From assembly GCA_041690395.1 (NCBI GenBank), contig JAWLHJ010000003.1, positions 352,001 to 416,000 on the forward strand: a stretch of DNA of 64,000 nt, written 5' to 3'. The notes below the pieces were generated by a model. It saw only the letters and a program-made list of their open reading frames with translations. It made no database searches and had not been told where the DNA came from. Of the stretch, positions 22,302 through 48,561 are shown piece after piece; positions within the stretch are counted from its first letter, which is position 1, and each line of letters begins with the position of its first letter. The translations under genes were made by a program, and so were the position numbers. This DNA comes from Longimicrobiales bacterium. GTDB lineage: Bacteria > Gemmatimonadota > Gemmatimonadetes > Longimicrobiales > Gaopeijiaceae.

Positions 22302-23858
22302 GTGACCGACCAACCGGGAGTCGCCCAACTAGCAGCCAAGGAATCGTCCGACCGTGTGACCCGAAAGCAGATTCGGGGATCGGGGCTCCTCCTGTCGGGC
22401 CGTGGCGTGGGACAAGGCCTCAAGTTCCTCGCCGAGCTCATGGTGGTCCGCTACCTGAGCACCGAGGGGTACGGAGCGTGGACGTACGCTCTGGCCGCGG
22501 TCACCTTCCTGCGCGGCATGTCCGCCCTCGGTCTCAACCGGGCGCTCAGTCGATACCTCCCCCTGCACCTCGAGCGCGGGGAGTTCCAACAGTTCTATGG
22601 GGTCCTGGTGTTCGTGTTCGGCGCGCTGGTCGCGGCCGGTACGATCGTGGTGGCGGGCTTCTACGCGCTGCCGGAAGAGGTGGCCGCCCTGGCGGGGGTC
22701 TCCTCCGAGCAAGCCCTGGCGCTCCTGTTCATCGTGATCTTCCTGGTACCGGTCGAGATCATCGACATCGGGCTCACCGGCGTGAGCGCGGCGTTCGGCG
22801 ATTCCCGGACGATCTTCGTGCGACGATTCCTCCTCCACCCCGGCCTGCGGATCGCCGTTGCGGGGACCCTGGTCCTCATGAAGGCCGATATCACGCTGCT
22901 CGCATACGGCTACCTGTTCTCGGGCGTGGTGGGAATCGCCTACTACGGGTGGGCCGTGGCCGTCCAGATGCGGGACCGCGGCCTCCTCGATCGTGGTCTC
23001 TTGCGCGGCTTGCGACTACCGGTGCGCAAGGTCCTTTCCTATACGACGCCCGTCATGGCCTCGGACTGGTGCTCCATCTTCATGCTTACGGCAGGTCCCT
23101 TGCTCCTCGGCTACTTCACCGACATGAGCACCGTGGCTCTCTACCAAGTCGTGGTTCCGGTGGCTGCCTTGAACACCCTGGTGGCGCAGAGCTTCACCAT
23201 GCTGTTCGAGCCGTCGGCTTCGCGCCTCCACGCAAGAGGCGATGCGACCGGTCTGAACGATCACTACTGGCGCACGGCGGTCTGGGTGGCGGTGCTCACT
23301 TTCCCGCTGTTCGCGCTGTCGTTTACGGCGTCTATTCCCCTGACGGTCTTGTTGTTCGGGGAGCGCTACGCCGCGGCCGGACCGATCCTCACATTGCTCG
23401 CGTCGGGCCACTTCATCGGTTCGATGGCGGGATTCAATTCCGAGGCGTTGCGCGTGACCGGAAGCCTGCGGTGGCTCATCGCGGTGAACGCCCTTGGAGC
23501 TGCGACCACGGTCGGCTTGAGCGTGCTGCTCATCCCCGGCATGGGTGCCATGGGGGCCGCCATCGGATTCGCGGCAGGACATTTCCTCTACGCGGTACTC
23601 AAGCAGGTCGCCGTCCAGAGGGCCACGGGCGTCAAAGCCTTCGATCTCACCTACAAGGGACCATACATCACCATGGCGGTCGTCGCGCTGCTCTTGCTCG
23701 TGACGAGGTTGACCTGGCCTGCCGAGCCGTGGATCCTGGTGCCGGCCGCGGTTGTCGGGTCGCTCGTTGTGTACTTCAGCGCGCGCGCGAGCTTGTCGGT
23801 GCTGGACACCTTCCCGGAGCTGGGAAGGTCCAAGCTGATGCGAACCATCTTCGGCTGA
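22302..23858 (+). CDS. wzx: Wzx-type polysaccharide flippase
   Basis: Multi-TM MOP-type protein ('RYLSTEGYGAW', 'LLFGERYAAAGPIL.LL') in an EPS context. Start uncertain (22266 or 22302). Confidence 0.85.
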   Translation: MTDQPGVAQLAAKESSDRVTRKQIRGSGLLLSGRGVGQGLKFLAELMVVRYLSTEGYGAWTYALAAVTFLRGMSALGLNRALSRYLPLHLERGEFQQFYGVLVFVFGALVAAGTIVVAGFYALPEEVAALAGVSSEQALALLFIVIFLVPVEIIDIGLTGVSAAFGDSRTIFVRRFLLHPGLRIAVAGTLVLMKADITLLAYGYLFSGVVGIAYYGWAVAVQMRDRGLLDRGLLRGLRLPVRKVLSYTTPVMASDWCSIFMLTAGPLLLGYFTDMSTVALYQVVVPVAALNTLVAQSFTMLFEPSASRLHARGDATGLNDHYWRTAVWVAVLTFPLFALSFTASIPLTVLLFGERYAAAGPILTLLASGHFIGSMAGFNSEALRVTGSLRWLIAVNALGAATTVGLSVLLIPGMGAMGAAIGFAAGHFLYAVLKQVAVQRATGVKAFDLTYKGPYITMAVVALLLLVTRLTWPAEPWILVPAAVVGSLVVYFSARASLSVLDTFPELGRSKLMRTIFG

Positions 23859-24094: not shown

Positions 24095-24152
24095 CCCTGC
24101 AGGGTCATTGTCGGCGATCTCCGCCGCTCGGTATCGTTCGAACGGGAGTAAC

Positions 24153-27538: not shown

Positions 27539-27554
27539 TGGCGCGCCTCTTGCC
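27539..27554 (+). promoter_or_regulatory. sigma-54 -24/-12-like promoter
   Basis: TGGCGCGCCTCTTGCC, about 70 nt upstream of GTG 27622. Confidence 0.62.
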
Positions 27555-27621
27555 CCTTCAGCTAGACAGACCATCGATCCGGCCGGCAAGACGACCTTCA
27601 CCACACGGAGGAGGCACCTCA

Positions 27622-28326
27622 GTGGAACTACATCTGGATCACCTGAAGCGCTATGGCGTGCGGGCGTGGTTCCTTAGAGGCGCCTGCGGCGTGGCCCATC
27701 GTGCAGTCGGGTTCAAAGCGCTTCGAGGCATGACGCTCGAGCCGGACGACATGGACCCGACCTACCTCGGCGACGCCCCGCCCTTCACGCACAGGGTATG
27801 CGGTGCCGCGGACTTCTCGAGGTTGGACGACGCTCCCAAGCTGGCGTCGGACGAGTTCTACGAGGGCGCGATCGGACGGGGTGACCGTTGCCACTACATG
27901 GCGGACGGGGACCGAGTGGCGAGCTACGGCTGGTACGCCACGGCTCCGGTGCCGGCCTTCGAGGACACGTGGATCCACTTCTCGCCCGAGTACGTCTACA
28001 TGTACAAGGGGTTCACGTCTCCCGAGTACAGAGGGAAGCAGTTACACGCATACGGGATGGCGCACGCGGCGGCGGAAGCACGGACCCTTGGATACCGGGG
28101 TCTCATCAGCTATGTGGAAGTGCAGAACGAGGGGTCGCTGCGCTCTGTCGCGCGGCTGGGCTACCGGTCGTTCGGTACCTGCATCTGCCTGCGCGCCTTC
28201 GGGCGAACGCTGACTTTCAGCTCGCCGGGATGCCGTCCCTACGGCTTCGAGCTTTCGGTATCGCCGGAGCAGACCGCCAGGGCGAGGACAGTACCCTCAG
28301 CGGCCTCGGCTCATCTCGCCGAGTAG
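27622..28326 (+). CDS. GNAT family acyltransferase
   Basis: Motif A 'FTSPEYRGKQL' and 'N.GSLR...RLGY'. GGAGGAGG RBS. Confidence 0.8.
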   Translation: MELHLDHLKRYGVRAWFLRGACGVAHRAVGFKALRGMTLEPDDMDPTYLGDAPPFTHRVCGAADFSRLDDAPKLASDEFYEGAIGRGDRCHYMADGDRVASYGWYATAPVPAFEDTWIHFSPEYVYMYKGFTSPEYRGKQLHAYGMAHAAAEARTLGYRGLISYVEVQNEGSLRSVARLGYRSFGTCICLRAFGRTLTFSSPGCRPYGFELSVSPEQTARARTVPSAASAHLAE

Positions 28327-29619: not shown

Positions 29620-30593
29620 GAAAGAGACTCACGTTCGCTGCGGTGCCGCCATCGATCGATCTCGGCGAACCATGGCAACATCCGCAACGCGAAAATCGGG
29701 ACGGAGGTGCGGCGCGTGATGTTCGTGCGGCGAAGCTGGAATGGATCCGTCTCGCCGAGCTCGTTCAGTCCGTCTTCGCAGGTGAACCCGAGGGTGCAGC
29801 CTTCCTCGCGTGCGATACGACTCACCGTCGCGTCGTAGACGCCATAGGGATAGGCGATGGGCCGAGCGCCGGCTCCGAGTTCCCGCTCGAGGTCCTCCAG
29901 AGATCCGCGGATCTCGCTACGGACACGGATCTCGTCGAGCTTCGTAAGCGCTGCGTGATGGCGCGTGTGTGCCCCGAAGCTGACACCATCCCGCGAAAGC
30001 GCCCTCAATTCGTCCCATGAAAGCACGGGCGACACCTGACGGGAGGGTTCGCGATCGTCGAGGCCGACCTCCCGGCAGGTGCTGTCGACGAAGCGCTCCG
30101 CTTCATCATGGCCCAGGCGCCGCATCAGGGCACGTACCTGGTGGTGATCTTCGATCGGGGGCAGCGTCACGGAATCGATGGACCCTCTCGCGGCCTCCAG
30201 GGCACGGCCCCAGGTCTCATCCTTGGTGCCACGAACCGTCGCCCGGTGAAGGCGATCCCACCAGAGCGCCCGATCTGGATGGTCCGGGTAGGCCGTCGGC
30301 ACGAAGACGGTCACGGGAATCCCGAGCTCGCGCAGGATCGGCCACGCATACTCCGCGAAGTCCCGGTACGCGTCGTCGACCGTCACGTGGACCGCGCTCG
30401 CGGGCAGGGGTCGCCCCCCCTCCGAGCACGCCTCGACGATCTGCTCGAGGGTTACCGGACGATATCGCCTCCGAAGATGCTCCATCTGCCTTCGGAACGT
30501 CTCGGGCGTCGCACTCACGAGGAGGGGGTCCAGATCCGGGGTCTCGTCCGGCTCCGCGATCCGATGGTAGGTCAGGACTCTCAATAGACTCAT
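29616..30593 (-). CDS. Polysaccharide deacetylase (CE4/NodB-like)
   Basis: 'VLTYHRI', 'TVDDAY', 'GAHTRHH' and 'AYPYG'. Confidence 0.9.
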   Translation of the reverse strand: MSLLRVLTYHRIAEPDETPDLDPLLVSATPETFRRQMEHLRRRYRPVTLEQIVEACSEGGRPLPASAVHVTVDDAYRDFAEYAWPILRELGIPVTVFVPTAYPDHPDRALWWDRLHRATVRGTKDETWGRALEAARGSIDSVTLPPIEDHHQVRALMRRLGHDEAERFVDSTCREVGLDDREPSRQVSPVLSWDELRALSRDGVSFGAHTRHHAALTKLDEIRVRSEIRGSLEDLERELGAGARPIAYPYGVYDATVSRIAREEGCTLGFTCEDGLNELGETDPFQLRRTNITRRTSVPIFALRMLPWFAEIDRWRHRSERESLS

Positions 30594-31975
30594 GTCGGTG
30601 CGACCTCCATGTAGTAGGGATCCGCTTCTGCCCCGTACTCCCACACCCAGTCCCTGAGGGTGCCGACCGCCGCCGCCGCCAATGCCACCATGACCCAGTA
30701 GTACCGCTCGTAGGCGAGATGCAGGAAGACTCCCGTGCCCAGATAGGCGAGGAGGACCAACGTGAATCCGGTGGCCAGCCGAGCTAGGTCCGGTCGTGTC
30801 GCGACGAGGGTCAAGCGCAGCCTCCGCAGGTCGAGGAGAAGGAAGAACGGGATCGCCAGGAAGATCAGCAGGCCCACGGTGCCGGTTTCCGCCGCCATCT
30901 CGAGGTAGAGATTGTGCGCTCGGCGTGGCTCGGCGATCTGGCGAAAGCTGAGCTCCGGCAATTCCTGGTATCGGACGGCGTGAAAAGCGATGTACTGCCC
31001 CGGCCCCACCCCCAGCACCGGGTGGTCGGTGTACGCCGCGAGGGCGGAGAGCATGGCCGTCGTGCGTCCCCTCGTCGGTCCGTCGGCCTCGACCTGAGTG
31101 GATCCGAAGAGACCCGCTACGCCTGCCACGCTTTTCGCACGGTCTGCCATCCCCGGCACAGCGGTGAGTGTCACGACGACACCCACGGCCAGCACGCCGA
31201 CCAGTCGACCGGGCCGAATGAGTCGTAGTGGGACCGCGATGACCAGCAGCGCGAACAGCGCGACGAGCGCACCCCGCGAGTAGGTGAGAAGAACACCGCC
31301 GAGCAGCAGCCCGACACAGAGCCAGCCGAGGAGGGCCCCGGCCCGCCGGCCGGCGTTGAGGGCGACCATCACGGAGAGTGCGCCTGCCATCATCAGGACC
31401 TGTGCGAACCGATTCGGTTCGTCCACGGGTCCCCGGGCACGGTGCTCGAGACCGATCTCCTCCCCCGCCGACACCTGACTCGCGGAGGCGCCGAGTCCCT
31501 CGAGGTGCTCGAGGCTCCTCGGCGCGAGACCCATGAACTCCTGGTCGTAGTTCCCCGTCACGGCCTGGAAGACGGTGAGCGCCGCGAGCAGAGTCGCGGC
31601 AGCCACGGTCGCGACGATGGCGACGCGGAGGTCGGGCAAGCCACGAACCGCCTGGCGCACCAGGAACACGATCAGCAGCCCCTCGCTGACGAAGACCAGA
31701 ATGCGCTCGAACGCGACGTCGTACCCCTGGGCGGGCAAGGCCGAGAGAAGAAGAACGGCCAGAAACGACGACATCAGGAGTAGGGTCCGATCGATGACGA
31801 TCGGGCGCCGTCGGATGACGAGCTGATGGACGGCAGCGAGTGCGAGTAGTGCGGGCACGAGCACCACGGACGCGGAGGGTACGATACCCCGCTGCGCCGC
31901 AACGACGGGCCAGTTCGTATAGAGGAGGAACAACCCGAGGGCCATGGCCGGCGCCGAGAAGGTGACTCCGCGCAT
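30590..31975 (-). CDS. O-antigen ligase / Wzy polymerase family protein
   Basis: 'EPNRFA', 'LTYSRG', 'HPVLGVGPG' and 'AHNLYLEMAAETG'. Confidence 0.88.
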   Translation of the reverse strand: MRGVTFSAPAMALGLFLLYTNWPVVAAQRGIVPSASVVLVPALLALAAVHQLVIRRRPIVIDRTLLLMSSFLAVLLLSALPAQGYDVAFERILVFVSEGLLIVFLVRQAVRGLPDLRVAIVATVAAATLLAALTVFQAVTGNYDQEFMGLAPRSLEHLEGLGASASQVSAGEEIGLEHRARGPVDEPNRFAQVLMMAGALSVMVALNAGRRAGALLGWLCVGLLLGGVLLTYSRGALVALFALLVIAVPLRLIRPGRLVGVLAVGVVVTLTAVPGMADRAKSVAGVAGLFGSTQVEADGPTRGRTTAMLSALAAYTDHPVLGVGPGQYIAFHAVRYQELPELSFRQIAEPRRAHNLYLEMAAETGTVGLLIFLAIPFFLLLDLRRLRLTLVATRPDLARLATGFTLVLLAYLGTGVFLHLAYERYYWVMVALAAAAVGTLRDWVWEYGAEADPYYMEVAPT

Positions 31976-31980
31976 TCGCC

Positions 31981-33255
31981 TCACCCTCCCAGAGCGGAAG
32001 ACCACCGTTCCACCGCCGTGGGCCGCCCACCCAGCCCCACCGGCCGGTCGCCCCGCCCCGTGTTCCGCTCGAAGCCCGACCTCCGCCACATGGACAGCAA
32101 GTGGCGCGCGGCGCGGAGCAGATCCGCGAGGAACGGAACGGGGTCGCGCCACGAGAACAGCGCGAACGCGAACCGTCCCCGCCAGGACCGGAGGACAGCG
32201 AAGGGGGAGATGCGTCTCTGGAGCAGAAGGGACGCACAAGCCTGGACGTCGCGCCGAACGTAAATCCACTTCGTCCCCCGGTAGCGTTGCACCCGCTCCG
32301 CGGGCAACGGCGCTCCGACGAGATCGTTGTACATGGTCATGAGAAGCTCGACACCCGCTCGCTCGGCGGCCGTGGCCCGGCCCGTGGGCCGACCGACGTT
32401 CGCCTCGATGACGACGTGCTGCCCGGAGCGGGCATCCCACATCGACTCGACGTAGCCCTGGCCGTGATGGCCCGCCTCCTTGAACAGGCGGATCGCCTGC
32501 TGACGCACCTCCTCGTTCCGGTGCTCCACGCTGATGCAGCCCTGTCCCACCACCGGAGGCCATTGGCGCAGCTTCCGGGACGTGAAGGTCACGAGCGGAG
32601 TCCCGTCGGTCGAGAAGTAGCCGTCGCACGTGTAGTGGTCGGAGGCCTCACCCGGAACGAGCTCCTGGACCACGAACCGGTTCGCCAGTGGTGCGTGCCG
32701 ATCGTAGTGCGCGAGCAGCGCGCTCGGAGTCTCGGCGACGAGTGCCTTCCCGGGCGCATGCCGATCCCACCGTACGGACTTCAGCGCGGGCTTGAGCACG
32801 CAGGGGTAGCGGGTATTACGCGCGGCTCGCTCCGCGTCGGCACGGCTCCGCAGGACGTGGGTCGCCGGAACGGGAATACCGCGTGCCACGGCGAACTCGG
32901 CGAAAGCGGCCTTGTCCATGAGCTGCTCGATGACGACGTGAGAAGGCACCGAGGTGAGGAAATGCTCCCGGAGCGTCACGCCGTGACGAGCCACGCCGAG
33001 AACGGCGAGGTCGGTGCATGGAACGAGGACGGCCGGCTTCTCCAGCTCGCTCGCGAGCTCGAAGAGGGCCGAGGCCATGCTTTCGGGGTCGCGGTCGGCC
33101 CTGATCACCCGGCGGCAGCTCCGCGTTCGGGCGCAAGGGTGCCGCACGTCCGCCGCGATGCCGATGACTTCGATGCCCCTGGCCGCGAACACCCTCGACA
33201 CCTGCAGGCCGGTGGGACCATCGAGCCCCATGACCACGACCGGCGGGCCGCTCAC
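31981..33255 (-). CDS. ATP-grasp carboxylate-amine ligase (D-aspartate ligase-like)
   Basis: 'LVPCTD', 'MDKAAF', 'YPCVLKP', 'VVQELVPG', 'KLRQWP' and 'IEANVGR'. Confidence 0.82.
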   Translation of the reverse strand: MSGPPVVVMGLDGPTGLQVSRVFAARGIEVIGIAADVRHPCARTRSCRRVIRADRDPESMASALFELASELEKPAVLVPCTDLAVLGVARHGVTLREHFLTSVPSHVVIEQLMDKAAFAEFAVARGIPVPATHVLRSRADAERAARNTRYPCVLKPALKSVRWDRHAPGKALVAETPSALLAHYDRHAPLANRFVVQELVPGEASDHYTCDGYFSTDGTPLVTFTSRKLRQWPPVVGQGCISVEHRNEEVRQQAIRLFKEAGHHGQGYVESMWDARSGQHVVIEANVGRPTGRATAAERAGVELLMTMYNDLVGAPLPAERVQRYRGTKWIYVRRDVQACASLLLQRRISPFAVLRSWRGRFAFALFSWRDPVPFLADLLRAARHLLSMWRRSGFERNTGRGDRPVGLGGRPTAVERWSSALGG

Positions 33256-34421: not shown

Positions 34422-34434
34422 CGGCGTGCACCCA

Positions 34435-35154
34435 TCATGATGCGCCGCGGCCGCCGAAGACGGCCCCGAACGTCCGGATCAGGATGAGCAGGTCGAGCGT
34501 CAAGCGACGGTTCTCGATGTACGCGATGTCCAGCCGGAGCCGGTCGTCGAAGTCCAGATCCGCTCGTCCGGAAACCTGCCACAGGCCGGTCAAGCCGGGC
34601 TTCACGTCGAGTCGAGCCGTGTGCCAGAGGCTGTACGTATCGGCCGCGAACGATGTCGGACGGGGTCCGACGAGGCTCATGTCCCCGGCGAGCACGTTGA
34701 AGATCTGGGGGAGCTCGTCGAGGCTCGTGCGCCGCAGGAACGCGCCCACGCGGGTCACGCGTGGGTCGTCCTTGATCTTGAAGTCCGGCCAGGTGAGCTG
34801 GTTCAGATGGGCGTACTTCTCCTTCAGCTCGGCCGCGTTCTCGACCATGGTGCGCATCTTGTACATGCGGAACCGTCGGCCATGCCGTCCGGTGCGAAGC
34901 TGGGCGAAGAACGGGGCTCCCGGGGTGTCGATGCGCACGGCCAGGGCGCAGAGCGCGAGCACGGGTATGACCACCGGGAGCGCCACGAGCGAGAGCACGA
35001 CGTCGAGAGCGCGCATGACAGCCAGGTACGTGCGCCGGCTGAGCATGGGTCGGGTCTCGAGCTCGTACCACGCCGGCTCGTGAAGAAGAGGACCCATGGA
35101 AGGCGCTCCTCGCAGCGCCTCGTCGAACGATCGGACGTCGAAGGACATACTCAT
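34435..35154 (-). CDS. Priming sugar transferase (Bac_transf, undecaprenyl-P glycosylphosphotransferase)
   Basis: 'DDPRVTRVGAFLRRTSLDELPQ' and 'KPGLTGLWQVSGR'. Confidence 0.95.
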   Translation of the reverse strand: MSMSFDVRSFDEALRGAPSMGPLLHEPAWYELETRPMLSRRTYLAVMRALDVVLSLVALPVVIPVLALCALAVRIDTPGAPFFAQLRTGRHGRRFRMYKMRTMVENAAELKEKYAHLNQLTWPDFKIKDDPRVTRVGAFLRRTSLDELPQIFNVLAGDMSLVGPRPTSFAADTYSLWHTARLDVKPGLTGLWQVSGRADLDFDDRLRLDIAYIENRRLTLDLLILIRTFGAVFGGRGAS

Positions 35155-35834
35155 TCACTCCCCAGGGCTTCACGGGCGACTTCGGGCGGGGCACCGGTGC
35201 GCGAAGTCCGAGGCCTGGATCGCGCGCGAACCTGGGGAGACGGAAGCTCGCGGGGAGGACGCGCGTCGCCGGATCCCGCCGACGAGGCTCGATCGTCCAC
35301 GCTCTCAGCGCGTTCCAGCGCCGTTTCCTCGAGATCTTCGAGAGTGAGGCCGTCAGCCGGGAAGGACGCGACGCCGGCCACCAGACCGATCTGCAGACGC
35401 CTCCGGAACAACTCCCCCACCCGGATCATGGCCTGCCGCGCCTCTTCGCCATCGGACTGGGGGAGCCCGAGGACGAAGCGACCGGCCATCGGCCGGTAGC
35501 ACACGACATCGCTCTCCCGCAGCGCCTCGCGAAGGCCGAGCGCCGCGAGGAGCGGGAGGACGTCGGGTCCAGCTGGTCCGTCACCATTGGAGCCGGGCCC
35601 GCCGTTCGAGCCGGGCCCGCCTGGGCCTTCCTCGAACCGCACCATGCTCAACACCACGATCGTAACGGCCTGTTCGTAACGACGCGCCCTCGTGAACTCG
35701 CCGACGAGCGTCTCGTCGGAGTCGATGACACGTGTCGGCGGCGGAGCCCCTCGAATGGAGGGCGTCCGCTCCGGCGAGTCGGCGTTGTCGCTGCTGTGAC
35801 CACCGACGATCCGTTTGATCCACTTCATGCTCAT
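35151..35834 (-). CDS. Degenerate GGDEF-fold protein retaining an RxxD site
   Basis: 'EFTRARRYEQAVTIVVL', 'LRESDVVCY...RFVLGLP' and 'GVASFPADG...DL'. No GG(D/E)EF motif. Confidence 0.7.
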   Translation of the reverse strand: MSMKWIKRIVGGHSSDNADSPERTPSIRGAPPPTRVIDSDETLVGEFTRARRYEQAVTIVVLSMVRFEEGPGGPGSNGGPGSNGDGPAGPDVLPLLAALGLREALRESDVVCYRPMAGRFVLGLPQSDGEEARQAMIRVGELFRRRLQIGLVAGVASFPADGLTLEDLEETALERAESVDDRASSAGSGDARPPRELPSPQVRARSRPRTSRTGAPPEVAREALGSE

Positions 35835-38092
35835 CAGACACCTTCAGGTTGGTTGTTCGACCGCGCGACACGGGATGACATGCTTTCGGCGGAACGCGGC
35901 GATCGTGCCGAAGCCGGGGAGGCGTCTTCAGGCGGCGTCGCGTACTCGGCGAAGTAGTCCCCGAAGTCCGGCATACTGCCCTTCTGGAGGTCGTTCACGA
36001 CCACACCCATGAGGTTGGGCACCTCTTCGGGGAGCCGGGCGACGAGGCCCTTCGGCGTCGTATTGCTGCGCACGACGACGACGACACCGTCCACCACGCG
36101 CGACAGCAGCGTCGCGTCGGCGGCGTTGATGAAGAGCGCGGGCGCGTCGACGATGACGAAGTCGTAGCGGGCCTCCGCGTCATGCAGGAGGGAGCTCATT
36201 CCGTGGCCGGCCAGGAGATCCGCCGCACGCGACGTCTCCCCGCCCGACGGAAGCACGTCCAGGCCGTCCGCGACGCCGAACCTGACCGACGCCTTCCAGT
36301 CGGCTCCGCCCTTCAGATGATCGGAGAGCCCGGGACCGGCCGGGATACCGAGAGCCCGGTGGACGGACGGCCTACGAAGGTCCGCGTCGACCAGCAACAC
36401 GCGGCTGCCCAGCTTGGCCAGTGACATGGCGAGGTTCACCGAGATGGTGGTCTTCCCTTCTCCCGCCCTGCAGCTCGACACCAGGATGGACTGCGCTACC
36501 GGTGCGCCGTTCCGGAACAGGACCGCGGTGCGCAGGGCCCCGAACGCGTCGACGATTGCATTGCTGTGCGCGGCTCCCTTCTCGAGCATGTCGAGGCGGA
36601 GCCAGGAGCCCTGTCCGGATCGCCTTCGGACCCTCGGCTCCAGGGCGGAGGGACCCTCGTGCGCGGGAATCATGCCGAGAATCGGCAGCTCCATCCGGCG
36701 CGGAAGGTCGCCCACGGTCTTCAGCGTGTCGTCGAAGAGCTCCTTGACGAACGCGGCGCCGATGCCGAGCACCAGCCCGAGCATGAGCGCGAGCCCCATG
36801 GTCATGGCGAACACCGGGCGGTACGGCTGCAGGGGGGGAACCGCCGGGTCGACCACCGAGAAGTCGGTCGGCCCGATGGCCACCGCGGTCTCCGCGTCGC
36901 GCTGCCGCTCATGGAGCGTGACGTAGAGCGCCCGGTTCGCGAGCACTGCCTGACGGAGGATATGATGTCCTCCGGACTCCGGACCCAGCTCGTTGGCCCG
37001 CTCTTCCTGCTCGTCGATCGCCTGCGCGATCATCCCCTCGCGCTGCAACGCCAGTCGGTACTCGTTCCCGACCCGGCCGGCCACGCGCTCCCGCTCCTGC
37101 GCGATGAGCCCCTCGACGTTCGCGATCTGGTTGAGCACGTCGGCCGTGACCGGATAGTCGTCGGTGAACGTCGACGAGAGCCGGGCGTATTCGCGCCGTA
37201 GCCCGGACAGCTGAGACTCCAGCTCCCTCAGAGCGGCGTCCTCGACGATGTCCACCCCGCCCTGGTCCGCGACGACGTTGTAGAGCGCCTGGTTCTCGTA
37301 CCGCACGCCTTGAGCTTCGGCCAGTCGAGCCCGCAGGTCTCTCAAGCGGGTCCCGATCTCGGAGGTGATGTCCTCCTCCACCAGGTACGGAAGGCCGTTC
37401 TCCTGCGTGTACCGCCGCAGCGCCTCTTCCGACTCCTCGAGCCTCCGTCCCACTTCCTCGACCTGGGCAGCGATACGTTCCGCGCCCTCCTCGCGCATCT
37501 CCGTGCGAAGCGTCGTAAACGACGCGACGATCTCGTTGACGATGAGAGCCGCGAGCTCGGGCGATCCGGCGGAGAAGGTCACGCGTACCAGCCGGCTCTC
37601 GGCGACCGGGTCGATGACGAGACGCTCGAGGAAGCGCGACACCATGCCTTGTCTCGTGGTCTCTTCGTCCGGAGCGAACTCCTCGACCTGCTCCAGCTCG
37701 AGCGTCTCGATGACGCGGTTCGCGAGGGTCTCACTGCGAAGCAGCTCGAAGTTGGTCCGCAGGTGCTCCTCGGTGGGGTCGCCCTCGGCGAAGAGGCTCG
37801 CGACGGAGGGGACACTCCCGTCGCCCCGGCCGATCTCCAGCAGCGCGCTGGCGCGGTAGACGGGCGTCTGGAACAATGTGAACAGGAGCGCGGCCGCGAC
37901 CACGCCGAGAAAGATCCCGCGGATCAGCGACGCGCGGCGACGCAGGATGCCGACCAGCGTTCTGAGGTCGACCTCCATGCCGTCCCGCTCACCCGGCAGG
38001 GGACCGCTTTGCGCCCGGTAGCGCGAAGGGAGAGTTCCACCGTCACCGGGGATGCGCGCGAGCGAACGCCCGTTCCTCGACTCGGGGGCCAT
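35834..38092 (-). CDS. wzc: Polysaccharide co-polymerase / BY-kinase
   Basis: Wzz N-terminus, coiled coil, TM, Walker A 'AGEGKTT', 'LVDADLRRP' and 'VIVDAP'. Confidence 0.92.
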   Translation of the reverse strand: MAPESRNGRSLARIPGDGGTLPSRYRAQSGPLPGERDGMEVDLRTLVGILRRRASLIRGIFLGVVAAALLFTLFQTPVYRASALLEIGRGDGSVPSVASLFAEGDPTEEHLRTNFELLRSETLANRVIETLELEQVEEFAPDEETTRQGMVSRFLERLVIDPVAESRLVRVTFSAGSPELAALIVNEIVASFTTLRTEMREEGAERIAAQVEEVGRRLEESEEALRRYTQENGLPYLVEEDITSEIGTRLRDLRARLAEAQGVRYENQALYNVVADQGGVDIVEDAALRELESQLSGLRREYARLSSTFTDDYPVTADVLNQIANVEGLIAQERERVAGRVGNEYRLALQREGMIAQAIDEQEERANELGPESGGHHILRQAVLANRALYVTLHERQRDAETAVAIGPTDFSVVDPAVPPLQPYRPVFAMTMGLALMLGLVLGIGAAFVKELFDDTLKTVGDLPRRMELPILGMIPAHEGPSALEPRVRRRSGQGSWLRLDMLEKGAAHSNAIVDAFGALRTAVLFRNGAPVAQSILVSSCRAGEGKTTISVNLAMSLAKLGSRVLLVDADLRRPSVHRALGIPAGPGLSDHLKGGADWKASVRFGVADGLDVLPSGGETSRAADLLAGHGMSSLLHDAEARYDFVIVDAPALFINAADATLLSRVVDGVVVVVRSNTTPKGLVARLPEEVPNLMGVVVNDLQKGSMPDFGDYFAEYATPPEDASPASARSPRSAESMSSRVARSNNQPEGV

Positions 38093-39156
38093 CAGTAGAA
38101 CAGTCCCCGGAAGGTGAGCATGCTGACCAGAGCCCCCAGCACGCCCAACCGCCACGCCTTGTTGCGATTGTTCGGAACGAACAACACGTCGCGCGGCATC
38201 AACGCGGGCGGGGCGACTTCACCGTCCAGCATCTTGTCGAGGTGTATGGGGATCTCCTGCCTGGACCCGTCTTCCGCCTGCCGGACGATGACCGCGCGGT
38301 CCGCGGCGGCGGTCCTGCCGAGGCCCTCCGCCATCGCGAGCGCCTGGAGGACGTCGAGCGGAGGACCGGTCGGGATCTGGAAACCACCGGGCTGATTCAC
38401 CTGCCCCGCGACATACACGAGGCCGGCAGGTCGGACCTGCACGATATCCCCCGGAAGCACGTCGAGATTCTCGGACGTCCGCCCGTACGTGAGCAGCGCG
38501 CCGAGATCGACTTCCATGACTTCGCTTCCCGGCGGACCCAGGGACGTCGCGGCCGTGCTGACCGGCATCGTGCCGGAGGTCGCTCCCCCGTGCGCCGGGC
38601 GCACCACGAACACGCTGTTCCCCGCCGTCTCGGTCAGCCCTTCGGCCATCGCGAGGACGTCGAGCAAGGTGCTCCTGCCCATGATCTGGTAGACGCCGGG
38701 CTGGCGCACGGACCCGATCACGGAGACGCCACGGCTCGACACCTCGGAGATCTGGACCGTGACATGCGGGTTGCGCATGTAGGTCTCACGGAGCTTCTCC
38801 GCGATGGAGTCTTCGAGCTCCCTCGCCGTCAGGCTGGCCGCCTCGACCGCGCCGAGCAGCGGGAGCGCGATCTCTCCGCTCTCCTCGACCTGGAACGTGC
38901 CGTTGAACGTCTCGACGCCGAACACGTCGATCTGGACCTGATCCCGTGCGCCGATCCGGTACTCGCTCGACACCCTCGCCGAGTCGGTCCGGGTTTCTGC
39001 GTTCGCCGTCAGGATTCGGCGATTCGCCTCCGCGATCCGCATGGTGTCGGCTTCCATGGGCGGAAGCGTTCCCGCGTCGTAGTTCGATCCGCCGCCCGAC
39101 GCACAGCCGGCGGTAAGGAGCAGGACGAAAAGGAAGGTTGTCCGAGCCATGGTCAT
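38092..39156 (-). CDS. wza: Polysaccharide export lipoprotein (Poly_export plus SLBB)
   Basis: Lipobox 'LTAGC', 'YRIGARD', 'GEIALPLLG' and two SLBB repeats. Confidence 0.9.
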   Translation of the reverse strand: MTMARTTFLFVLLLTAGCASGGGSNYDAGTLPPMEADTMRIAEANRRILTANAETRTDSARVSSEYRIGARDQVQIDVFGVETFNGTFQVEESGEIALPLLGAVEAASLTARELEDSIAEKLRETYMRNPHVTVQISEVSSRGVSVIGSVRQPGVYQIMGRSTLLDVLAMAEGLTETAGNSVFVVRPAHGGATSGTMPVSTAATSLGPPGSEVMEVDLGALLTYGRTSENLDVLPGDIVQVRPAGLVYVAGQVNQPGGFQIPTGPPLDVLQALAMAEGLGRTAAADRAVIVRQAEDGSRQEIPIHLDKMLDGEVAPPALMPRDVLFVPNNRNKAWRLGVLGALVSMLTFRGLFY

Positions 39157-39160
39157 GGTC

Positions 39161-40180
39161 CTATCGCGCATTGGCGACAGCGGGTTGTTGCATCGTGCGG
39201 CTCCGGCGGCGGGCCGGCCGGGCCTCGGGGTGTTCCGTGTGATACCAGTCGGCGAATCGCTCGAGGCCTGTCGCGAACGGGGTGGCCGGCCGGTAGCCGA
39301 ACAGTCTCTCGGCCTTGGACACGTCCGCGTACGTCCTGCGGACGTCGCCGGCCTGGTCGGGCATCTTCGAGATGTGGGGCTTGGCATCCATCGCGACGCC
39401 GACCTGGTCGATCATCTCGCGCAGGGAGATGGTGCGGGCGCCGCCGAGGTTTACGACATCGTAGATCTCCGGACTCCTGCCGAGCAGTCCGAGAGCTCCC
39501 TCGATGCCATCCAGGATGTCGTCGATATAGGTGTAGTCCCGCTCGGACCCACCGTCGCCGAACATCGGGATCGCTTCGCCCGCCGACATCATGCGGGCGA
39601 ACTTGTGGATCGCGAGATCCGGACGCTGCCGGGGCCCGTATACGGTGAAGAAGCGCAAGCAGAGAGCCCCGATGCCGAAGAGGTGCGCATGCGCATGGAC
39701 CAGGAGCTCACCGGCCCGCTTCGTCGCGGCGTAGGGGGAGATCGGCCGATCGCCGGGGTCGTCCTCGGAGAACGGAACCGACGCCGCGTCTCCGTATACG
39801 CTGGACGACGAGCCGAAGAGCAGACGACGGATGCCGCGCTCACGCATGAAGTCGAGCAACAGGATCGTGCCCCTGAGGTTCACGTCGACGTAGAGGTGAG
39901 GGTCGTCGATGGAGGGACGTACGCCCGCGCGCGCCGCGAGATGAACGACGGTGTCGATGTCCTCCGGGAGTCGCGCGTAGACCCCGGGATCGCGAATGTC
40001 GCCACGCACGTCCGTGAACGTCCCGAAGGCCCGGCACCTCGCCAGGTTCCGTTCCTTGATGGCCGGATCGTAGAAGGTGTCGTAGCTGTCGAGCGACACG
40101 ACGTGATGCCCTTTTCCGAGGAGACGCTCGCTCAGGTGGGATCCGATGAAGCCCGCGGCTCCGGTGATCAGAACCTTCAC
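39161..40180 (-). CDS. NAD-dependent epimerase (UDP-glucuronate 4-epimerase-like)
   Basis: 'TGAAGFIG', 'HLAARAGVR', 'YAATK' and 'RFFTVYGPRQRPDLA'. Confidence 0.92.
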   Translation of the reverse strand: MKVLITGAAGFIGSHLSERLLGKGHHVVSLDSYDTFYDPAIKERNLARCRAFGTFTDVRGDIRDPGVYARLPEDIDTVVHLAARAGVRPSIDDPHLYVDVNLRGTILLLDFMRERGIRRLLFGSSSSVYGDAASVPFSEDDPGDRPISPYAATKRAGELLVHAHAHLFGIGALCLRFFTVYGPRQRPDLAIHKFARMMSAGEAIPMFGDGGSERDYTYIDDILDGIEGALGLLGRSPEIYDVVNLGGARTISLREMIDQVGVAMDAKPHISKMPDQAGDVRRTYADVSKAERLFGYRPATPFATGLERFADWYHTEHPEARPARRRSRTMQQPAVANAR

Positions 40181-43953: not shown

Positions 43954-44026
43954 TTCGGGCTCCTTGGGGATCGCCGTATCACCATACGATCGAAGTAGCG
44001 CTCCGGCCAGTCGGTTAGTAGGGTCA

Positions 44027-45139
44027 TCACCGCGCCTTGCCGCCGGAGCCCGAGAGCAGAGTCGTCGAGTCGAGCGCCGATTGCACTCGATAGGAGCTCC
44101 GGGTCACGCCGCGCCCCGCGGCACGAACGAGCGCCCCGATCTTCGAGCCACGTGACCAGGCCCGGGTATGGTCGAGCGCATTGTTGACGGCGCGGAGGGT
44201 GGCGTTGGTACTCACCGACGCCACCGACATGTCGAAGGAGCCCGACGCGGCCCTCAGCTTGTAGCGTTCCTCACCGGCACCGAGGTCGATGCGCTGGATG
44301 CCACGGTCGGCGGCCGCGCGGGCGAGCTCCATCAGGGCCAGAAGCCCGGGGGAGTAGCGCCCCAGCTCGTGGTTGTAGGCTGGAATCCAGTAGTGGAGGA
44401 CCCGCCGCGTCCGGATGCCGAAGTGGGCCGCGGCCAGCGTGTCACCGACCCAGAGCGCGGAAAGCACGCCCGCGAATCCCTCGCCATCGAGTCGGCGGAG
44501 TCGCTGGATGAAGGCGCGCGCCCATCCGAGATCCAGGATGTTCGGCGTCCCCGTGGCCTTCCGCTGGGCGGCCTTCCACGACAACAGCGTATCGAAGACG
44601 GTGTCGTCGTCCGTGTGCCACTCGAAACGCCAGGGTCCGACGTCCCGAGTCAGTCCCCGACCCTTGCGCTCGATCTGACTCATCATGCTCGACCCCGAAT
44701 CGATTCTCTGCTGTCGGTAGGCCGCGAAGCCGTCCGACAGGTCGAGCACCGGAGCCGCCACGCCGTCGCTCTGGAAGCGCTGGAAGGCCTTCATGGAAGC
44801 GGGCACTCCCGGCAGCCTGAGCGTCCGGAGGCCCGCGCCCCTGACGAGCTCCTCGGGACTCCAGGGAACGTCGGGCTTCACGAAGGCCCCGGCCACGTCA
44901 CACAGACGTGAGCCGACCGGCCCCCCGACGCCGAAACGCGATCGCTGAAACGGGAGGAACCCGACCACCTCGTCACCGCGCGTGATCACGCCGACCTCGA
45001 CGTCGTCGCGCACCAGCCCAGCCGTGCGTGCATAGGCCGGATGAAGGAAGGGTCCGCTGAGACCCTCGTCCGCGTCGTGCATCTCCTCCCAGAGCGCGAA
45101 GAGCTCCGGGGAGAGTGTGCCTACGGGCTCGGAATGCAT
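44027..45139 (-). CDS. GNAT-fold protein, CelD/BcsL-like
   Basis: 'PFLHP', 'YSPGLL.L' and 'IDLGAGEERYK'. Confidence 0.85.
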   Translation of the reverse strand: MHSEPVGTLSPELFALWEEMHDADEGLSGPFLHPAYARTAGLVRDDVEVGVITRGDEVVGFLPFQRSRFGVGGPVGSRLCDVAGAFVKPDVPWSPEELVRGAGLRTLRLPGVPASMKAFQRFQSDGVAAPVLDLSDGFAAYRQQRIDSGSSMMSQIERKGRGLTRDVGPWRFEWHTDDDTVFDTLLSWKAAQRKATGTPNILDLGWARAFIQRLRRLDGEGFAGVLSALWVGDTLAAAHFGIRTRRVLHYWIPAYNHELGRYSPGLLALMELARAAADRGIQRIDLGAGEERYKLRAASGSFDMSVASVSTNATLRAVNNALDHTRAWSRGSKIGALVRAAGRGVTRSSYRVQSALDSTTLLSGSGGKAR

Positions 45140-45167
45140 GCCGCTCGCTCCAGGATCGGGATCAGAA

Positions 45168-46415
45168 TCAGTAACCGAAGTGCAGCCATCCTTCGCCCTC
45201 CAACCGACTGAGGAAGACGTTCGATGTGGCGAACGCGTGCTCGACGCGCCGGTTCGACGTCTGCAGGAGCATCCAGGTACGACCGGGACGGATGCGGCAT
45301 GAAGTAGTCTTGAACGCTGAGCTCCAGGCCGGATCGGACTGGCCGGTCACCGCGACGTTCCCCTCGCTCAGGGCGTCCGCGAACAGGTGTTTCAGAACCC
45401 GTTCCTGCGCCTCCGGCGCGGCCCCCAGCTGCAGTACGCGGCCGACGCCTCCGGTGCGCGAGTAGTACACGTACCAGCCCACGATCTCGCCCGACGCCCG
45501 GACGGCGGCGACCCTGAGGCTCTGTTCACGCCGGGTCCTGCGCAGGACCTCGAGTAGCCAGGCGAAGGTTTCCTCCGTATAGACCGGCCTGAGCGACAGA
45601 TGCTCCGTGAGTCGGCCCATGATCTGGACGAGCGCTCTCGCGTCCAGGGGCTCGGGCCGGTCGGCGGAAGCACTTCGGGTCCGTGAGATCGACAGCGCCC
45701 GTGCGATCGAGCCGGGTAGGGCCGAAAGACCGGCCAGGGCACGGTGGACGGCGTGAGGGGCCTTCCACCCCGTCAGCACCTCGTCGATGAGGTGGACACC
45801 GAGTCCGACTGGGCGGAGGACTCGGAACCACCGATTCGAACGGGACAGCAGCGTCCTGGCACCGAGCGCCTCGGAGATCTTGCGAGCCGTGGCGTTTCCG
45901 TCCGCCAGCGTCAAGTCGGGTGCTCCGGACATCAACGCGCGCATAAGTTGGATGGCCGCGAGGCCGTCGCGCTGGCCGGGAGCAACGATGAAGTTGTGCG
46001 AGACGACGGCGCGGATCGGCTCGCCGCCCAGAACCATGGGCCTCGGCATCGACCCCAGGCATCCTACGAGGTCGCCTGTCTTGCTGACGTATGCCCAGGA
46101 CGGAAGCGAGTCGTCGAGCCACGGATGGCCGAAGAAGACATCGCTCAGGAAGGTTCGCAGCTCCTCGCGGGGCGCACCCTCTCCGAAGCCCTGGCGATGC
46201 AACTCGACCACCTGGTCCATGTCGTCGGGTGTGAGCGGCCTGACGTGGGCCTTCGCGACGGCACTCCGGCGGTTTGCTCCCCCAGGGAGGGCGCTGTCGA
46301 TGGTTGGACGTAACAGGTGCGAACTCCTTCGAGGGGCGTAGGCGCGGACGGGACCGGACAACAGTATTGAGCGCAAGCTCCGTACCGCCCGCTCGTTGGC
46401 CGGAAATGCTCTCAC
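45168..46415 (-). CDS. Tandem GNAT-fold protein (start uncertain)
   Basis: 'VRPLTPDDM..V..L', 'HNFIVAP.QR' and 'GWYVYY'. The true start is probably downstream of 46360. Confidence 0.7.
   Translation of the reverse strand: MRAFPANERAVRSLRSILLSGPVRAYAPRRSSHLLRPTIDSALPGGANRRSAVAKAHVRPLTPDDMDQVVELHRQGFGEGAPREELRTFLSDVFFGHPWLDDSLPSWAYVSKTGDLVGCLGSMPRPMVLGGEPIRAVVSHNFIVAPGQRDGLAAIQLMRALMSGAPDLTLADGNATARKISEALGARTLLSRSNRWFRVLRPVGLGVHLIDEVLTGWKAPHAVHRALAGLSALPGSIARALSISRTRSASADRPEPLDARALVQIMGRLTEHLSLRPVYTEETFAWLLEVLRRTRREQSLRVAAVRASGEIVGWYVYYSRTGGVGRVLQLGAAPEAQERVLKHLFADALSEGNVAVTGQSDPAWSSAFKTTSCRIRPGRTWMLLQTSNRRVEHAFATSNVFLSRLEGEGWLHFGY
46372..46387 (-). promoter_or_regulatory. sigma-54 -24/-12-like promoter (GNAT-GNAT-ntrC-DGC unit)
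   Basis: CGGTACGGAGCTTGCG on the minus strand. Confidence 0.58.
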
Positions 46416-46565
46416 GCCATTGGCTTATCACCCCGAGAACCCCCGCGGATAGTGTCTCGCATACGCGTCACCCGCCAGGGACCGTCGCTCGCCTGCGGCA
46501 CCTGACAACCCTTGTAACACGCCGTCAACCACGCACACGCACCCTCGCCGGAAGTCGTTCCCCGG

Positions 46566-46581
46566 TGGCCCGGATCGTGCA
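46566..46581 (+). promoter_or_regulatory. sigma-54 -24/-12-like promoter (adenylation-gvp unit)
   Basis: TGGCCCGGATCGTGCA, about 46 nt upstream of ATG 46628. Confidence 0.6.
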
Positions 46582-46627
46582 CCCATAGGCCTGGTGGACC
46601 ACGCGCTTATCGCATTCGGAGTCGGGC

Positions 46628-48283
46628 ATGACTTTCATAGAAGGTGGAGACTACGGGACCGGTCTTCTGCACGACTGCGTGAGCGAGGTCGCTCGCTCGC
46701 GCCCCGACGCGCGCGCCGTGATCGGCGAGGACCGCACCTTCACTTACGCCGACCTCGACGACTATTCGAATCGCGTCGCATCGGTGCTTCGGGCCCACGG
46801 GTGCGAGCGAGGGCATAGGGTCGCGCTCCTCATGCCCAACTCGGCTCGTGCGGTCGCGACGCTCGTCGGCGTGCTCAAAGCCGGGTGCGCGTACGTTCCT
46901 CTCGACCCGGCCGGTGGCATGAGCCGGATCGGGGACATGCTTCGCCAATGCGAGCCGAAGGTTCTGCTCGCCAACGGCTGCAGACCGGAGGTCGTGGCGG
47001 ACCTCGATACCCGAGGTGTGGTGACGGGCTGGCTCGGACCCGACCCGGCCCCACCGCGGACGGACTTCACTCTGGCCGACATCCGCGCCACGGCGCCGCA
47101 TCCGCCCGAGAGTGACGTGGGCCCGGACGATCTCGCGTATATCCTGTTCACCTCGGGAACGACGGGCTCGCCCAAGGGCGTTCCCATTCTGCACGGAAGC
47201 GCGCGGGCGTTCACCGACTGGGCCACCAGGCAGTTCGAGTTGGGTCCCGACGACAGGATTTCGGGGCACACCGCCCTGACGTTCGACCTGTCGATCTTCG
47301 ACATCTTCGTGTCCTTCCGAGCCGGAGCGGAGCTCCATCTGGTGCCGAAGCGGGTCCGCTTGCTTCCCCACGAAGTCGCTCGCTTCATCGAGGAGCGGAA
47401 GCTCACGCTCTGGTTCTCGGTACCGTCGCAACTGGCGTACGTGGCCCGTTTCGACGCCCTGGGGAAGGAGGACCTCGGCTCGCTCCGCCATGTGGCCTGG
47501 TGCGGCGACGTCCTCACCACTCCGAGCCTTCTCTACTGGAAGCGGAGGTTGCCCGGCGTCACGTTCACGAACCTCTACGGGCCGACTGAAACCACGGTCG
47601 CGAGCAGCTACTACGTGGTTCCAGAGAGCTTCGACGACCCGACGGCCACCATTCCCATCGGCACGGCATGCGCCGGGGAGGAGTTGCTGGTGCTCGACGA
47701 GCGCCTCGCGTCCGTCCCGGAGGGATCGGTCGGCGACATCTACATCGGCGGGGTCGGCCTCAGCCCGGGATACTGGAGGGACCCCGCGCGCACTGGAGAG
47801 GCCTTCATTCAGGATCCCAGGTCGCCCAACGGACCGGAGCGACTCTACCGCACCGGCGACCGCGGCAGGCTCGGGCCCGGCGGCACGGTGGATTTCCTAG
47901 GTCGGGCCGACTTCCAGATCAAGACCGCGGGGTACCGGGTCGAGCCCGCCGAGGTCGAGGGCGCCGTCCTGGCGCTGCCGGAGGTGGCGGCTTGCGTGGT
48001 CGTCGCCGTGACGGTGGACGACTTCAGCGGAAGCGCCGTCGGATGCGCGTACGTTCCGTCACCCGGAACGGCCCCGCGCGCCGGTGAGATGAAGAAGCGC
48101 CTGGGCGACACCCTCCCCGCCTTCATGGTGCCCTCGAGATGGCTCGCCCTCGACGAGCTCCCTCTCGACGGCCGTGGCAAGATCGATCGCGTTCGGGCCA
48201 GGTCGCTCCTGGAAGCCCCGCCGGACCCGGCCGACGGGTCGACCGGCGGCCACCGTCCACTCGACCAGCTTCAGCGCATATGA
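46628..48283 (+). CDS. Stand-alone amino acid adenylation enzyme (DltA-like)
   Basis: 'AYILFTSGTTGSPKGV', 'FDLSIFD', 'WCGD', 'NLYGPTETTVA', 'LYRTGD' and 'GKIDR'. Confidence 0.92.
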   Translation: MTFIEGGDYGTGLLHDCVSEVARSRPDARAVIGEDRTFTYADLDDYSNRVASVLRAHGCERGHRVALLMPNSARAVATLVGVLKAGCAYVPLDPAGGMSRIGDMLRQCEPKVLLANGCRPEVVADLDTRGVVTGWLGPDPAPPRTDFTLADIRATAPHPPESDVGPDDLAYILFTSGTTGSPKGVPILHGSARAFTDWATRQFELGPDDRISGHTALTFDLSIFDIFVSFRAGAELHLVPKRVRLLPHEVARFIEERKLTLWFSVPSQLAYVARFDALGKEDLGSLRHVAWCGDVLTTPSLLYWKRRLPGVTFTNLYGPTETTVASSYYVVPESFDDPTATIPIGTACAGEELLVLDERLASVPEGSVGDIYIGGVGLSPGYWRDPARTGEAFIQDPRSPNGPERLYRTGDRGRLGPGGTVDFLGRADFQIKTAGYRVEPAEVEGAVLALPEVAACVVVAVTVDDFSGSAVGCAYVPSPGTAPRAGEMKKRLGDTLPAFMVPSRWLALDELPLDGRGKIDRVRARSLLEAPPDPADGSTGGHRPLDQLQRI

Positions 48284-48561
48284 TCACCCCATCGCAAGAA
48301 CGCCGCGCTCCTCCGCAGCACGCGGGGGTGGAGGCGACCGTCCACCGGATCTTCCGCGACAGCCTCGAGCTCGACGTGGAGGTGGATACGGACGTGATCT
48401 CCGGCGGTATGCTCGACTCGTTGGCGTTCGTTCAACTCCTGCTCGCGCTCGAGGAGGAGTTCGGGGTCAAGGTCGACCTTTCGGACCTCGAGCTCGAGGA
48501 CTTCAGCTCCGTGGCCAATGTCGCTCGCCTGGTGACGGCCAGCGCGGAGGGGGCGGCATGA
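48280..48561 (+). CDS. Carrier protein (ACP/DltC-like)
   Basis: Ppant site 'GMLDSLAFVQLLLALEEEFG'. ATGA overlap with the A-domain stop. Confidence 0.9.
   Translation: MITPSQERRAPPQHAGVEATVHRIFRDSLELDVEVDTDVISGGMLDSLAFVQLLLALEEEFGVKVDLSDLELEDFSSVANVARLVTASAEGAA

Follow-up and report, generated by a model that had tools for sequence, protein, structure and literature searches.

The 64,000-nucleotide stretch considered here (the window) comes from a Longimicrobiales bacterium (assembly GCA_041690395.1, contig JAWLHJ010000003.1, positions 352,001 to 416,000; G000:C3:352001-416000 in our numbering), the genome of which comprises 4.33 Mb and is 98% complete. Within it, a stand-alone amino acid adenylation (A) enzyme and a discrete carrier protein are encoded divergently from two genes for GNAT-fold proteins, here termed GNAT1 and GNAT2, and a third such gene, GNAT3, lies in an exopolysaccharide (EPS) locus (Table 1). 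An earlier account of this DNA (the sequence-only reading) had likened the enzyme and carrier to DltA and DltC, had noted that the window holds no MBOAT, DltD, condensation or thioesterase gene, and had proposed that the GNATs aminoacylate EPS repeat units in the cytoplasm of a diderm. The gene arrangement was borne out: all named genes were confirmed by profile matches, GNAT3 at 27622 included, and the window gave no match to MBOAT, DltD, condensation or PF00975 models. A diderm host is reasonable, since the nearest named relatives of the A enzyme belong to the Gemmatimonadota (63-84% identity) and Wza is encoded in the window together with an outer-membrane barrel. The comparative analysis reported here points to GNAT2 as the one GNAT that follows carrier proteins from locus to locus.

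The A, carrier, GNAT1 and GNAT2 genes have ratios of nonsynonymous to synonymous substitution (dN/dS) of 0.12-0.22 against two congeners (G002 and G006), indicating purifying selection and hence four genes that are real and maintained. Soil metatranscriptome contigs, mostly of 90-95% identity, span the four genes and not positions 46384-46590; assembled contigs are no proof of transcription, DNA carry-over is possible, and these contigs were not used as evidence. No sigma-70 promoter or terminator match was found in 43900-50200. By hydropathy, all named enzymes of the proposed route are without membrane segments. Two phosphopantetheinyl transferases are encoded in the genome, both on contig C1, and condensation domains are found genome-wide only in a non-ribosomal peptide synthetase/polyketide synthase (NRPS/PKS) cluster on the same contig.

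The A and carrier genes overlap by ATGA and are translationally coupled. The A enzyme has the features of a stand-alone (type II) NRPS component, namely a TIGR01733 match, intact Asp235 and Lys517, a discrete carrier and no condensation domain. Against two DltA models it scored 272 and 284 bits (cut-offs 560 and 476), and nine of its relatives scored 254-307 bits where listed; the carrier scored 39 and 29 against DltC models (cut-offs 68 and 52). By PheA numbering, the pocket residues of the window enzyme are DLFFACLVAK, and most relatives have DLFFLCLIAK. When ranked by the pocket region the closest match was PltF, followed by AlmE (4OXI, second-best), 6AKD and then DltA, with aligned residues DLLYLALVC in PltF, DLHLFCLIA in AlmE and DCFFLALIT in 6AKD; in the whole-protein comparison DltA structures rank below many NRPS domains, and 4OXI is low too. 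Proline, the substrate that PltF as best pocket match would imply, was set aside in view of the Cys301/Ala331 of the family and the absence of the GPTETNVC motif of the PltF alignment. The bulky pocket floor together with Cys301 predicts glycine or D-alanine as the substrate.

Downstream of the carrier, a gvpA-like gene, a receiver domain and a gvpL/F gene (48558-50024, + strand) overlap the carrier gene end to end. G001 and G002 share this orphan gvp pair coupled to the carrier operon, and in G006 the pair was not called; gvp genes are outside the conserved cassette described below, and the receiver domain alone recurs in some relatives. G001 also has a second A copy (L038:959-2530) in which the equivalents of Asp235 and Lys517 are gone and which is likely dead.

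The A enzyme has orthologues in 6 of 61 relatives, in 17 of 401 phylum-sampled genomes and at 9 of 79 metagenome loci. A set of 32 A-enzyme loci was compared, comprising 23 genomic loci (window included) and nine metagenomic ones, some on short stretches; G116, G234 and the degenerate second A copy of G001 were left out. At 25 of the 32 loci the A gene is preceded, at a distance of no more than 300 bp, by a gene for an SsuD-like flavin monooxygenase of the luciferase family, a cassette head that the sequence-only reading had missed along with the ATP-grasp ligase of the EPS locus. Four of the other seven loci are cut by a contig end, and the window, G002 and G315 are without the gene at this place. 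A third enzyme, being GNAT2 (10 loci), a small RimJ-type GNAT (16) or a formyltransferase (3), adjoins the A/carrier pair at 28 loci, one of which has two, and a carbamoyltransferase is divergent at nine of the 32. The small GNAT keeps a match to the coenzyme A (CoA) loop in 8 of 11 cases, which fits an acetyl-CoA-dependent capping role parallel to that of the formyltransferase.

A profile of the monooxygenase matched 17 of the 401 genomes, 15 of which also have the A enzyme; with G234 removed from both lists and G116 from the A list, the tallies become 15 for the A enzyme, 16 for the monooxygenase and 14 for both. The profile was built from A-enzyme neighbours, so what is informative here is that the monooxygenase seldom occurs by itself. 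The two genomes with a monooxygenase and no A orthologue have, directly downstream of it, an A fragment (G308) or a divergent A gene (G358). Since the monooxygenase heads the cassette in most relatives, the donor is suggested to be often a modified rather than a plain amino acid, and our guess at the reaction would be alpha- or N-hydroxylation of the tethered residue. In the genome of the window a monooxygenase gene (C1:383127-384164) followed by a formyltransferase gene is found on C1 and not at the A locus, and G001 is similar; no monooxygenase remnant was detected in 46150-46700, nor an A remnant around the C1 monooxygenase. Plasmid relatives of the monooxygenase (40-49%) lie in carrier-dependent clusters in all four records examined of seven.

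The cassette and its parts also occur in other settings. The monooxygenase subfamily is present in clusters with halogenase, P450, acyl-CoA dehydrogenase and phosphopantetheinyl transferase genes on Tritonibacter, Rhizobium, Gemmobacter and Streptomyces plasmids (L064-L067). In a two-carrier variant (L050, L052-L055, L057, L070) two carriers flank the small GNAT, with a divergent carbamoyltransferase and no polysaccharide genes in view, and amtB/glnK is next door in all six genome loci of this variant. At L058:6101-8978 the cassette runs on into FabH-like and 3-hydroxyacyl-CoA dehydrogenase genes, which suggests an N-(3-hydroxyacyl) amino acid donor. At L158:9192-10522 (G308) the monooxygenase is followed by an A fragment of 104 residues, and L160:5331-7124 (G228) holds monooxygenase, GNAT and carrier genes without an A gene, a loss independent of that in L158.

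The linkage of GNAT2 to carriers extends beyond this cassette. A GNAT2 profile located 13 places in 10 of the 401 genomes, four of them already known as A-enzyme neighbours. A carrier lies within 5.5 kb at five of the nine profile-only places, and a sixth is next to a ligase, with no carrier in view; as background, 37 of the 3554 called genes (1%) of the window's genome lie within 5 kb of a carrier domain. At seven loci (L056, L059, L060, L072, L074-L076) GNAT2 is 3' of the carrier, on the same strand and within 150 bp. Four of the nine profile-only places have a different donor cassette, composed of a TIGR03098-like ligase, a carrier and asnB, and at least three of these also include nadE. 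Homologues of GNAT2 on plasmids were found in 99-104 records, nearly all rhizobial, and in four of the five plasmid records examined the ligase-carrier-asnB-nadE cassette is within 3 kb of GNAT2; Sinorhizobium meliloti 1021 has two GNAT2 copies in a wzx/wzy locus, 11-16 kb from the ligase cassette and at about 1435600-1436700 and 1439000-1440100 of the pSymB record. Because GNAT2 follows two unrelated carrier-loading systems, the use of a carrier-bound donor is the simplest explanation. The earlier proposal of GNAT transfer from the carrier thus gains support for GNAT2 from linkage across loci, and none for GNAT1 and GNAT3. In two congeners an 8.3 kb GH94/glucoamylase gene of the cyclic beta-1,2-glucan synthase type stands between GNAT2 and the A gene (L034:2373-10661; L036:3106-11544), and cyclic glucans are a possible further acceptor there.

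The predicted structure of GNAT2 (predicted local distance difference test score 90) has two GNAT domains across the whole chain; its start may be further upstream, the frame being open to 46415. In the ranking of solved folds, Eis, Eis-like proteins and N-myristoyltransferases (NMT) share the first places at Z 18-18.5 (Eis 3SXN: Z 18.5, root mean square deviation 3.8, 278 residues aligned; NMT: Z 18.4), and next come glucosamine N-acetyltransferases and MshD, at Z 14-15; the nearest folds include enzymes that acylate amino sugars, namely Eis, the glucosamine N-acetyltransferases and MshD. Fem and LuxI, previously offered as models for the GNATs, were not supported: Eis and NMT are the nearest among the 50 fold matches listed for GNAT2, which contain no Fem, LuxI or FeeM entry and need not cover those families, and neither GNAT1 nor GNAT2 matched PF02388 or TIGR03019. 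No NCBIfam model matches the GNAT2 family, which comprises 1340 clusters (50% identity) at E≤1e-30 and is matched weakly by PF13527.

The CoA loop, Q/R-x-x-G-x-G/A, which tRNA-dependent GNATs also lack, is absent in 131 of 143 representatives of the GNAT2 family and in 30 of 40 closer relatives, and is matched in the window protein. Loss of this loop is described as characteristic of carrier-dependent GNATs (PMC11685415). Another mark of such GNATs, co-encoding with an adenylating enzyme and a carrier, was found for GNAT2 only. Among the best 150 family members, one is fused to a PF13480 domain (P0187) with a distant likeness to GNAT1, and one to an ATP-grasp domain (P0099) that resembles the ATP-grasp ligase of the EPS locus in the window (28% over 371 residues, E 8e-23). 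Longer fused forms were not found among 7999 candidates, which is weak evidence, though the family listing contains these two fusions.

The Dlt label is loose and not supported: both the A enzyme and the carrier score far below the DltA/DltC cut-offs, and for DltD (PF04914) the 98% complete genome gave no match. The sequence-only reading had named a cognate MBOAT elsewhere in the genome as evidence that would speak against it. A single genomic MBOAT does exist, at C1:431850-433265 in a second EPS/exosortase locus, scoring 164 against a DltB cut-off of 375, and is followed by a gene for a membrane-anchored protein with the SGNH-like motifs GNS and DxxH (read by eye). No MBOAT was present at any of the 32 orthologous A loci within the stretches examined, and of 19 other A-enzyme genomes two contained one, or 2 of 16 when only near-complete genomes are counted; at more distant A-domain loci of the same metagenome scan the count was 13 of 70. 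These counts support the claimed independence from MBOAT and DltD.

The second EPS/exosortase locus (L021-L024, G000:C1:378001-458000) is interleaved with the NRPS/PKS hybrid, which has one A domain with an embedded luciferase-like domain and one with the glycine-type code DILQLGMIWK. The same region holds a TIGR03019 FemAB-like gene, the MBOAT and SGNH-like genes and the monooxygenase and formyltransferase of the cassette. At L159:7605-19900 carbamoyltransferase, monooxygenase, divergent A (DLHFLCLIAK, nearer AlmE) and carrier genes and one for a 349-residue protein face an MBOAT/SGNH operon, and a metagenome contig (L083:177-5314) combines a stand-alone A enzyme with an MBOAT and a formyltransferase.

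The EPS locus of the window (22356-40180) encodes Wzx, Wzy, Wzc, Wza, a priming transferase, three further glycosyltransferases, an epimerase, a deacetylase and an ATP-grasp ligase. The GNAT pair is about 4 kb from these genes, with a GGDEF gene and a sigma-54 regulator between. As judged from its sequence, the deacetylase could expose an amine acceptor in the cytoplasm. Polysaccharide genes flank seven of the nine profile-only GNAT2 places and two of the five plasmid loci. The three GNATs had been treated alike in the earlier account, and here they part: a search of the other 400 genomes at E≤1e-25 returned no relative of GNAT1, which adjoins the cassette in close kin only, has no solved relative by sequence and is regarded as a lineage-specific passenger that may serve a second step; nothing was found that ties GNAT3 to a carrier, and it is probably an ordinary acetyltransferase. 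Elsewhere in the window, a complete Mrp-type antiporter operon and a PEP synthase gene (7936-17878) are ordinary.

Table 1. Features of the window discussed in the text (positions are those of the window)
Feature	Position	Strand	Basis or remark
Wzx flippase	22356..23858	+	PF01943
GNAT3, single-domain GNAT in EPS locus	27622..28326	+	PF00583, E 6e-5; GTG start, GGAGG ribosome-binding site
Polysaccharide deacetylase, no hydrophobic signal or membrane segment	29616..30593	-	PF01522, hydropathy
Wzy-type polymerase	30590..31975	-	PF04932
ATP-grasp ligase in EPS locus	31981..33255	-	Homologous to domain fused to GNAT2 in P0099
Priming glycosyltransferase	34435..35097	-	
Wzc	35834..37978	-	
Wza	38092..39156	-	
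Sugar epimerase	39161..40180	-	
GNAT1 (CelD/BcsL-type)	44027..45139	-	PF13480, E 8e-36; 28 bp downstream of GNAT2
GNAT2, tandem GNAT, Eis/NMT-like fold, candidate carrier-dependent transferase	45168..46220	-	Weak PF13527, E 7e-6
Stand-alone A enzyme, 551 residues	46628..48283	+	TIGR01733, 380 bits (cut-off 317)
Carrier protein, 93 residues	48280..48561	+	PF00550; phosphopantetheine Ser47 in GMLDSL, codon 48418-48420

From the gene identities, the fold model, co-occurrence, the scarcity of MBOAT and purifying selection, we infer a substrate, a mode of donor use and an acceptor as follows. The A enzyme would load a small amino acid, predicted to be glycine or D-alanine, on the adjacent carrier. 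In genomes that have them at the locus, the monooxygenase and an enzyme for capping would tailor the carrier-bound residue (oxidised or N-capped) before transfer; in the bacterium studied here, the monooxygenase and formyltransferase on C1 might act in trans, or the plain amino acid might be used. The signal-less deacetylase would supply a free amine on a sugar, and GNAT2 would move the unit, perhaps modified, from the carrier to this amino sugar while the wzx/wzy polysaccharide precursor is still linked to a nucleotide or lipid. The transfer would be cytoplasmic and would need no MBOAT. A second unit may be added by GNAT1 and the ATP-grasp ligase. We regard this scheme as a whole as the most likely one, with chances about even.

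A number of observations weigh against this proposal. The window itself has no monooxygenase at the locus, and G002 (91% complete) showed none anywhere. GNAT2 is divergent from the A and carrier genes in the window and 9-10 kb away from them in two congeners, and 3 of the 13 GNAT2 places have no carrier or ligase in the stretch examined, two of these being second copies in genomes with a linked copy. The best-ranked solved folds of GNAT2 are titled acetyltransferases or myristoyltransferases, and the window GNAT2 keeps a CoA loop match (QRDGLA), as do 10 of 40 close relatives. At L159 an MBOAT with its own carrier and ligase is 4 kb from a related cassette. Eight of the genomes with the A enzyme belong to a single genus, and the occurrences counted are thus not independent of each other; the evidence outside the Gemmatimonadota comes from plasmids and metagenome contigs. 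The glycan acceptor is the weakest step: clear polysaccharide genes occur at 8 of 23 genome A-enzyme loci in a by-hand tally over scanned neighbours (two more have a single gene), and none were seen at the block from genus g74 or at three of the five plasmid GNAT2 loci. The co-occurrence with polysaccharide loci suggested earlier as a check is seen for profile-only GNAT2 places and less so for A-enzyme loci, and of the EPS aminoacylation route itself, MBOAT/DltD independence and a carrier-linked GNAT2 are supported, with an EPS acceptor that stays conjectural.

These points lend themselves to other explanations. GNAT2 might use acetyl-CoA or another acyl-CoA, either to cap the carrier-bound residue or to acetylate the sugar, with the hand-off carried out by the ATP-grasp ligase, by GNAT1 or by the FemAB-like protein on C1. 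Its shared slot with the small GNAT and the formyltransferase, the QRDGLA loop, the acetyl- and myristoyltransferase folds, the fusions to ATP-grasp and PF13480 domains and a FemAB-like gene that follows the cassette in L041 all accord with such a role. However, the loop is gone in most family representatives, GNAT2 also accompanies a cassette whose donor is no amino acid adenylate of the A-enzyme type, and L073 carries both the small GNAT and GNAT2, and we regard CoA-dependence as unlikely. We hold it equally improbable that the cassette makes a small molecule or lipid, in the manner of altemicidin or type II NRPS pathways, and that common regulation or a variable genomic island accounts for the nearby polysaccharide genes. 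The proven carrier-GNAT cases do make small molecules, and the absence of polysaccharide genes at most g74 loci and three plasmid loci, the divergent carbamoyltransferase and the halogenase/P450/phosphopantetheinyl transferase clusters of the monooxygenase subfamily lean in that direction, but the cassette has no conserved release or export gene, and polysaccharide genes accompany the profile-only GNAT2 places mentioned above as well as the copies in S. meliloti and Shinella.

The C1 MBOAT and its anchored SGNH-like neighbour might also serve the window carrier as analogues of DltB and DltD, given that such a pair exists, that both loci are EPS loci and that the monooxygenase and formyltransferase of the cassette are also on C1. 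This is very improbable with 17 of 19 A-enzyme genomes showing no MBOAT, three congeners (75-91% complete) with all or part of the gene order among them, with the low DltB score and with no PF04914 match. Just as remote is the idea of a locus in decay, no longer functional after the loss of its monooxygenase: cassette pieces have been lost repeatedly (L158, L160 and the second copy in L038), yet the low dN/dS also holds against G002, itself without an adjacent monooxygenase, and Asp235, Lys517 and the carrier serine are intact.

Transfer by GNAT2 from a carrier would have close precedents. In altemicidin biosynthesis, transfer from A enzyme to carrier to GNAT is proven for SbzB/SbzG/SbzC and SbzL/SbzG/SbzI, with SbzG(K) given for the former set (PMC6331615); as in the window, these consist of a stand-alone adenylating enzyme, a carrier and a GNAT. 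In the Sbz systems the transfer needs the carrier and not CoA, and the CoA loop is altered (PMC6331615, PMC11685415). SbzC is likened there to mycothiol acetyltransferase, the fold of which is 16th in the list for GNAT2 (Z 14.2). The Sbz systems differ in that the acceptor is a small-molecule antibiotic precursor and SbzI has a single GNAT domain, and they are set beside GNAT2 by description, not by sequence. AlmEFG of Vibrio cholerae is a carrier-based glycylation system of a diderm that works without DltB/DltD (PMC12930378). The AlmE pocket matches the window A enzyme at 6 of 10 residues and the family consensus at 7 of 10, whereas AlmG acylates lipid A and the system has no monooxygenase. 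AlmG is a lipid acyltransferase and not a GNAT, and no Pfam match of the AlmG lipid A acyltransferase type was seen among the window genes or recurring neighbours scanned. DltXABCD shares a stand-alone A enzyme, with Cys at the 301-equivalent position, and a discrete carrier; besides the scores and the DltD result above, it differs in the DltB/DltD that the cassette lacks.

Among polysaccharide systems, the TIGR03019 FemAB-like proteins of PEP-CTERM/exosortase loci and the PF13480 CelD/BcsL proteins are GNAT-fold proteins of EPS loci and have long been suspected of decorating polysaccharides; GNAT1 belongs to PF13480, whereas the TIGR03019 member of this genome is on C1 and GNAT2 matches no NCBIfam model. 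In a Myxococcus spore-coat study the GNATs ExoG and ExoI were reportedly proposed as glycan modifiers, which would lower the novelty of our proposal. ATP-dependent amidation of capsule sugars is known in Campylobacter. In S. meliloti, SMb20650 is cotranscribed with the acyl carrier protein SMb20651 and acylates it (PMC7232532). Judging from replicon and gene content, the L044 genes would be SMb20650/SMb20651. The SMb20650/SMb20651-asnB-nadE operon is similar in having GNAT2 homologues (24-34% identity) alongside, and differs in its ligase class (TIGR03098-like, 483 bits for L149) and in having amidotransferases instead of a monooxygenase. No paper was found on the monooxygenase-A-carrier cassette or on carrier-dependent GNAT transfer to wzx/wzy glycans in a literature search that left most subscription journals uncovered.

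By analogy, the system would be not Dlt but one working like Sbz or Alm, its new elements being an unnamed transferase family and an undescribed monooxygenase cassette. More tentatively, and with odds somewhat below even, we propose that GNAT2 may represent a widespread family of carrier-dependent glycan acyltransferases, a universal cytoplasmic last step for interchangeable donor cassettes (monooxygenase-A-carrier here, ligase-carrier-asnB-nadE in rhizobia) that adds tailored amino-acid or amide units, e.g. oxidised or N-capped glycyl, to wzx/wzy repeats. The individual reactions have precedents, so that the surprise is limited. If true, the family would give the orphan SMb20650/SMb20651 pathway an output, and the idea is readily testable in S. 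meliloti, which has copies on pSymB and in which both genetic work and the analysis of polysaccharides are well established. The monooxygenase-A-carrier cassette in turn points to undescribed on-carrier chemistry. Amino-acid and amide decorations of bacterial surface glycans alter their charge, their role as phage receptors and their properties as a matrix, and only a small number of the enzymes responsible are known.

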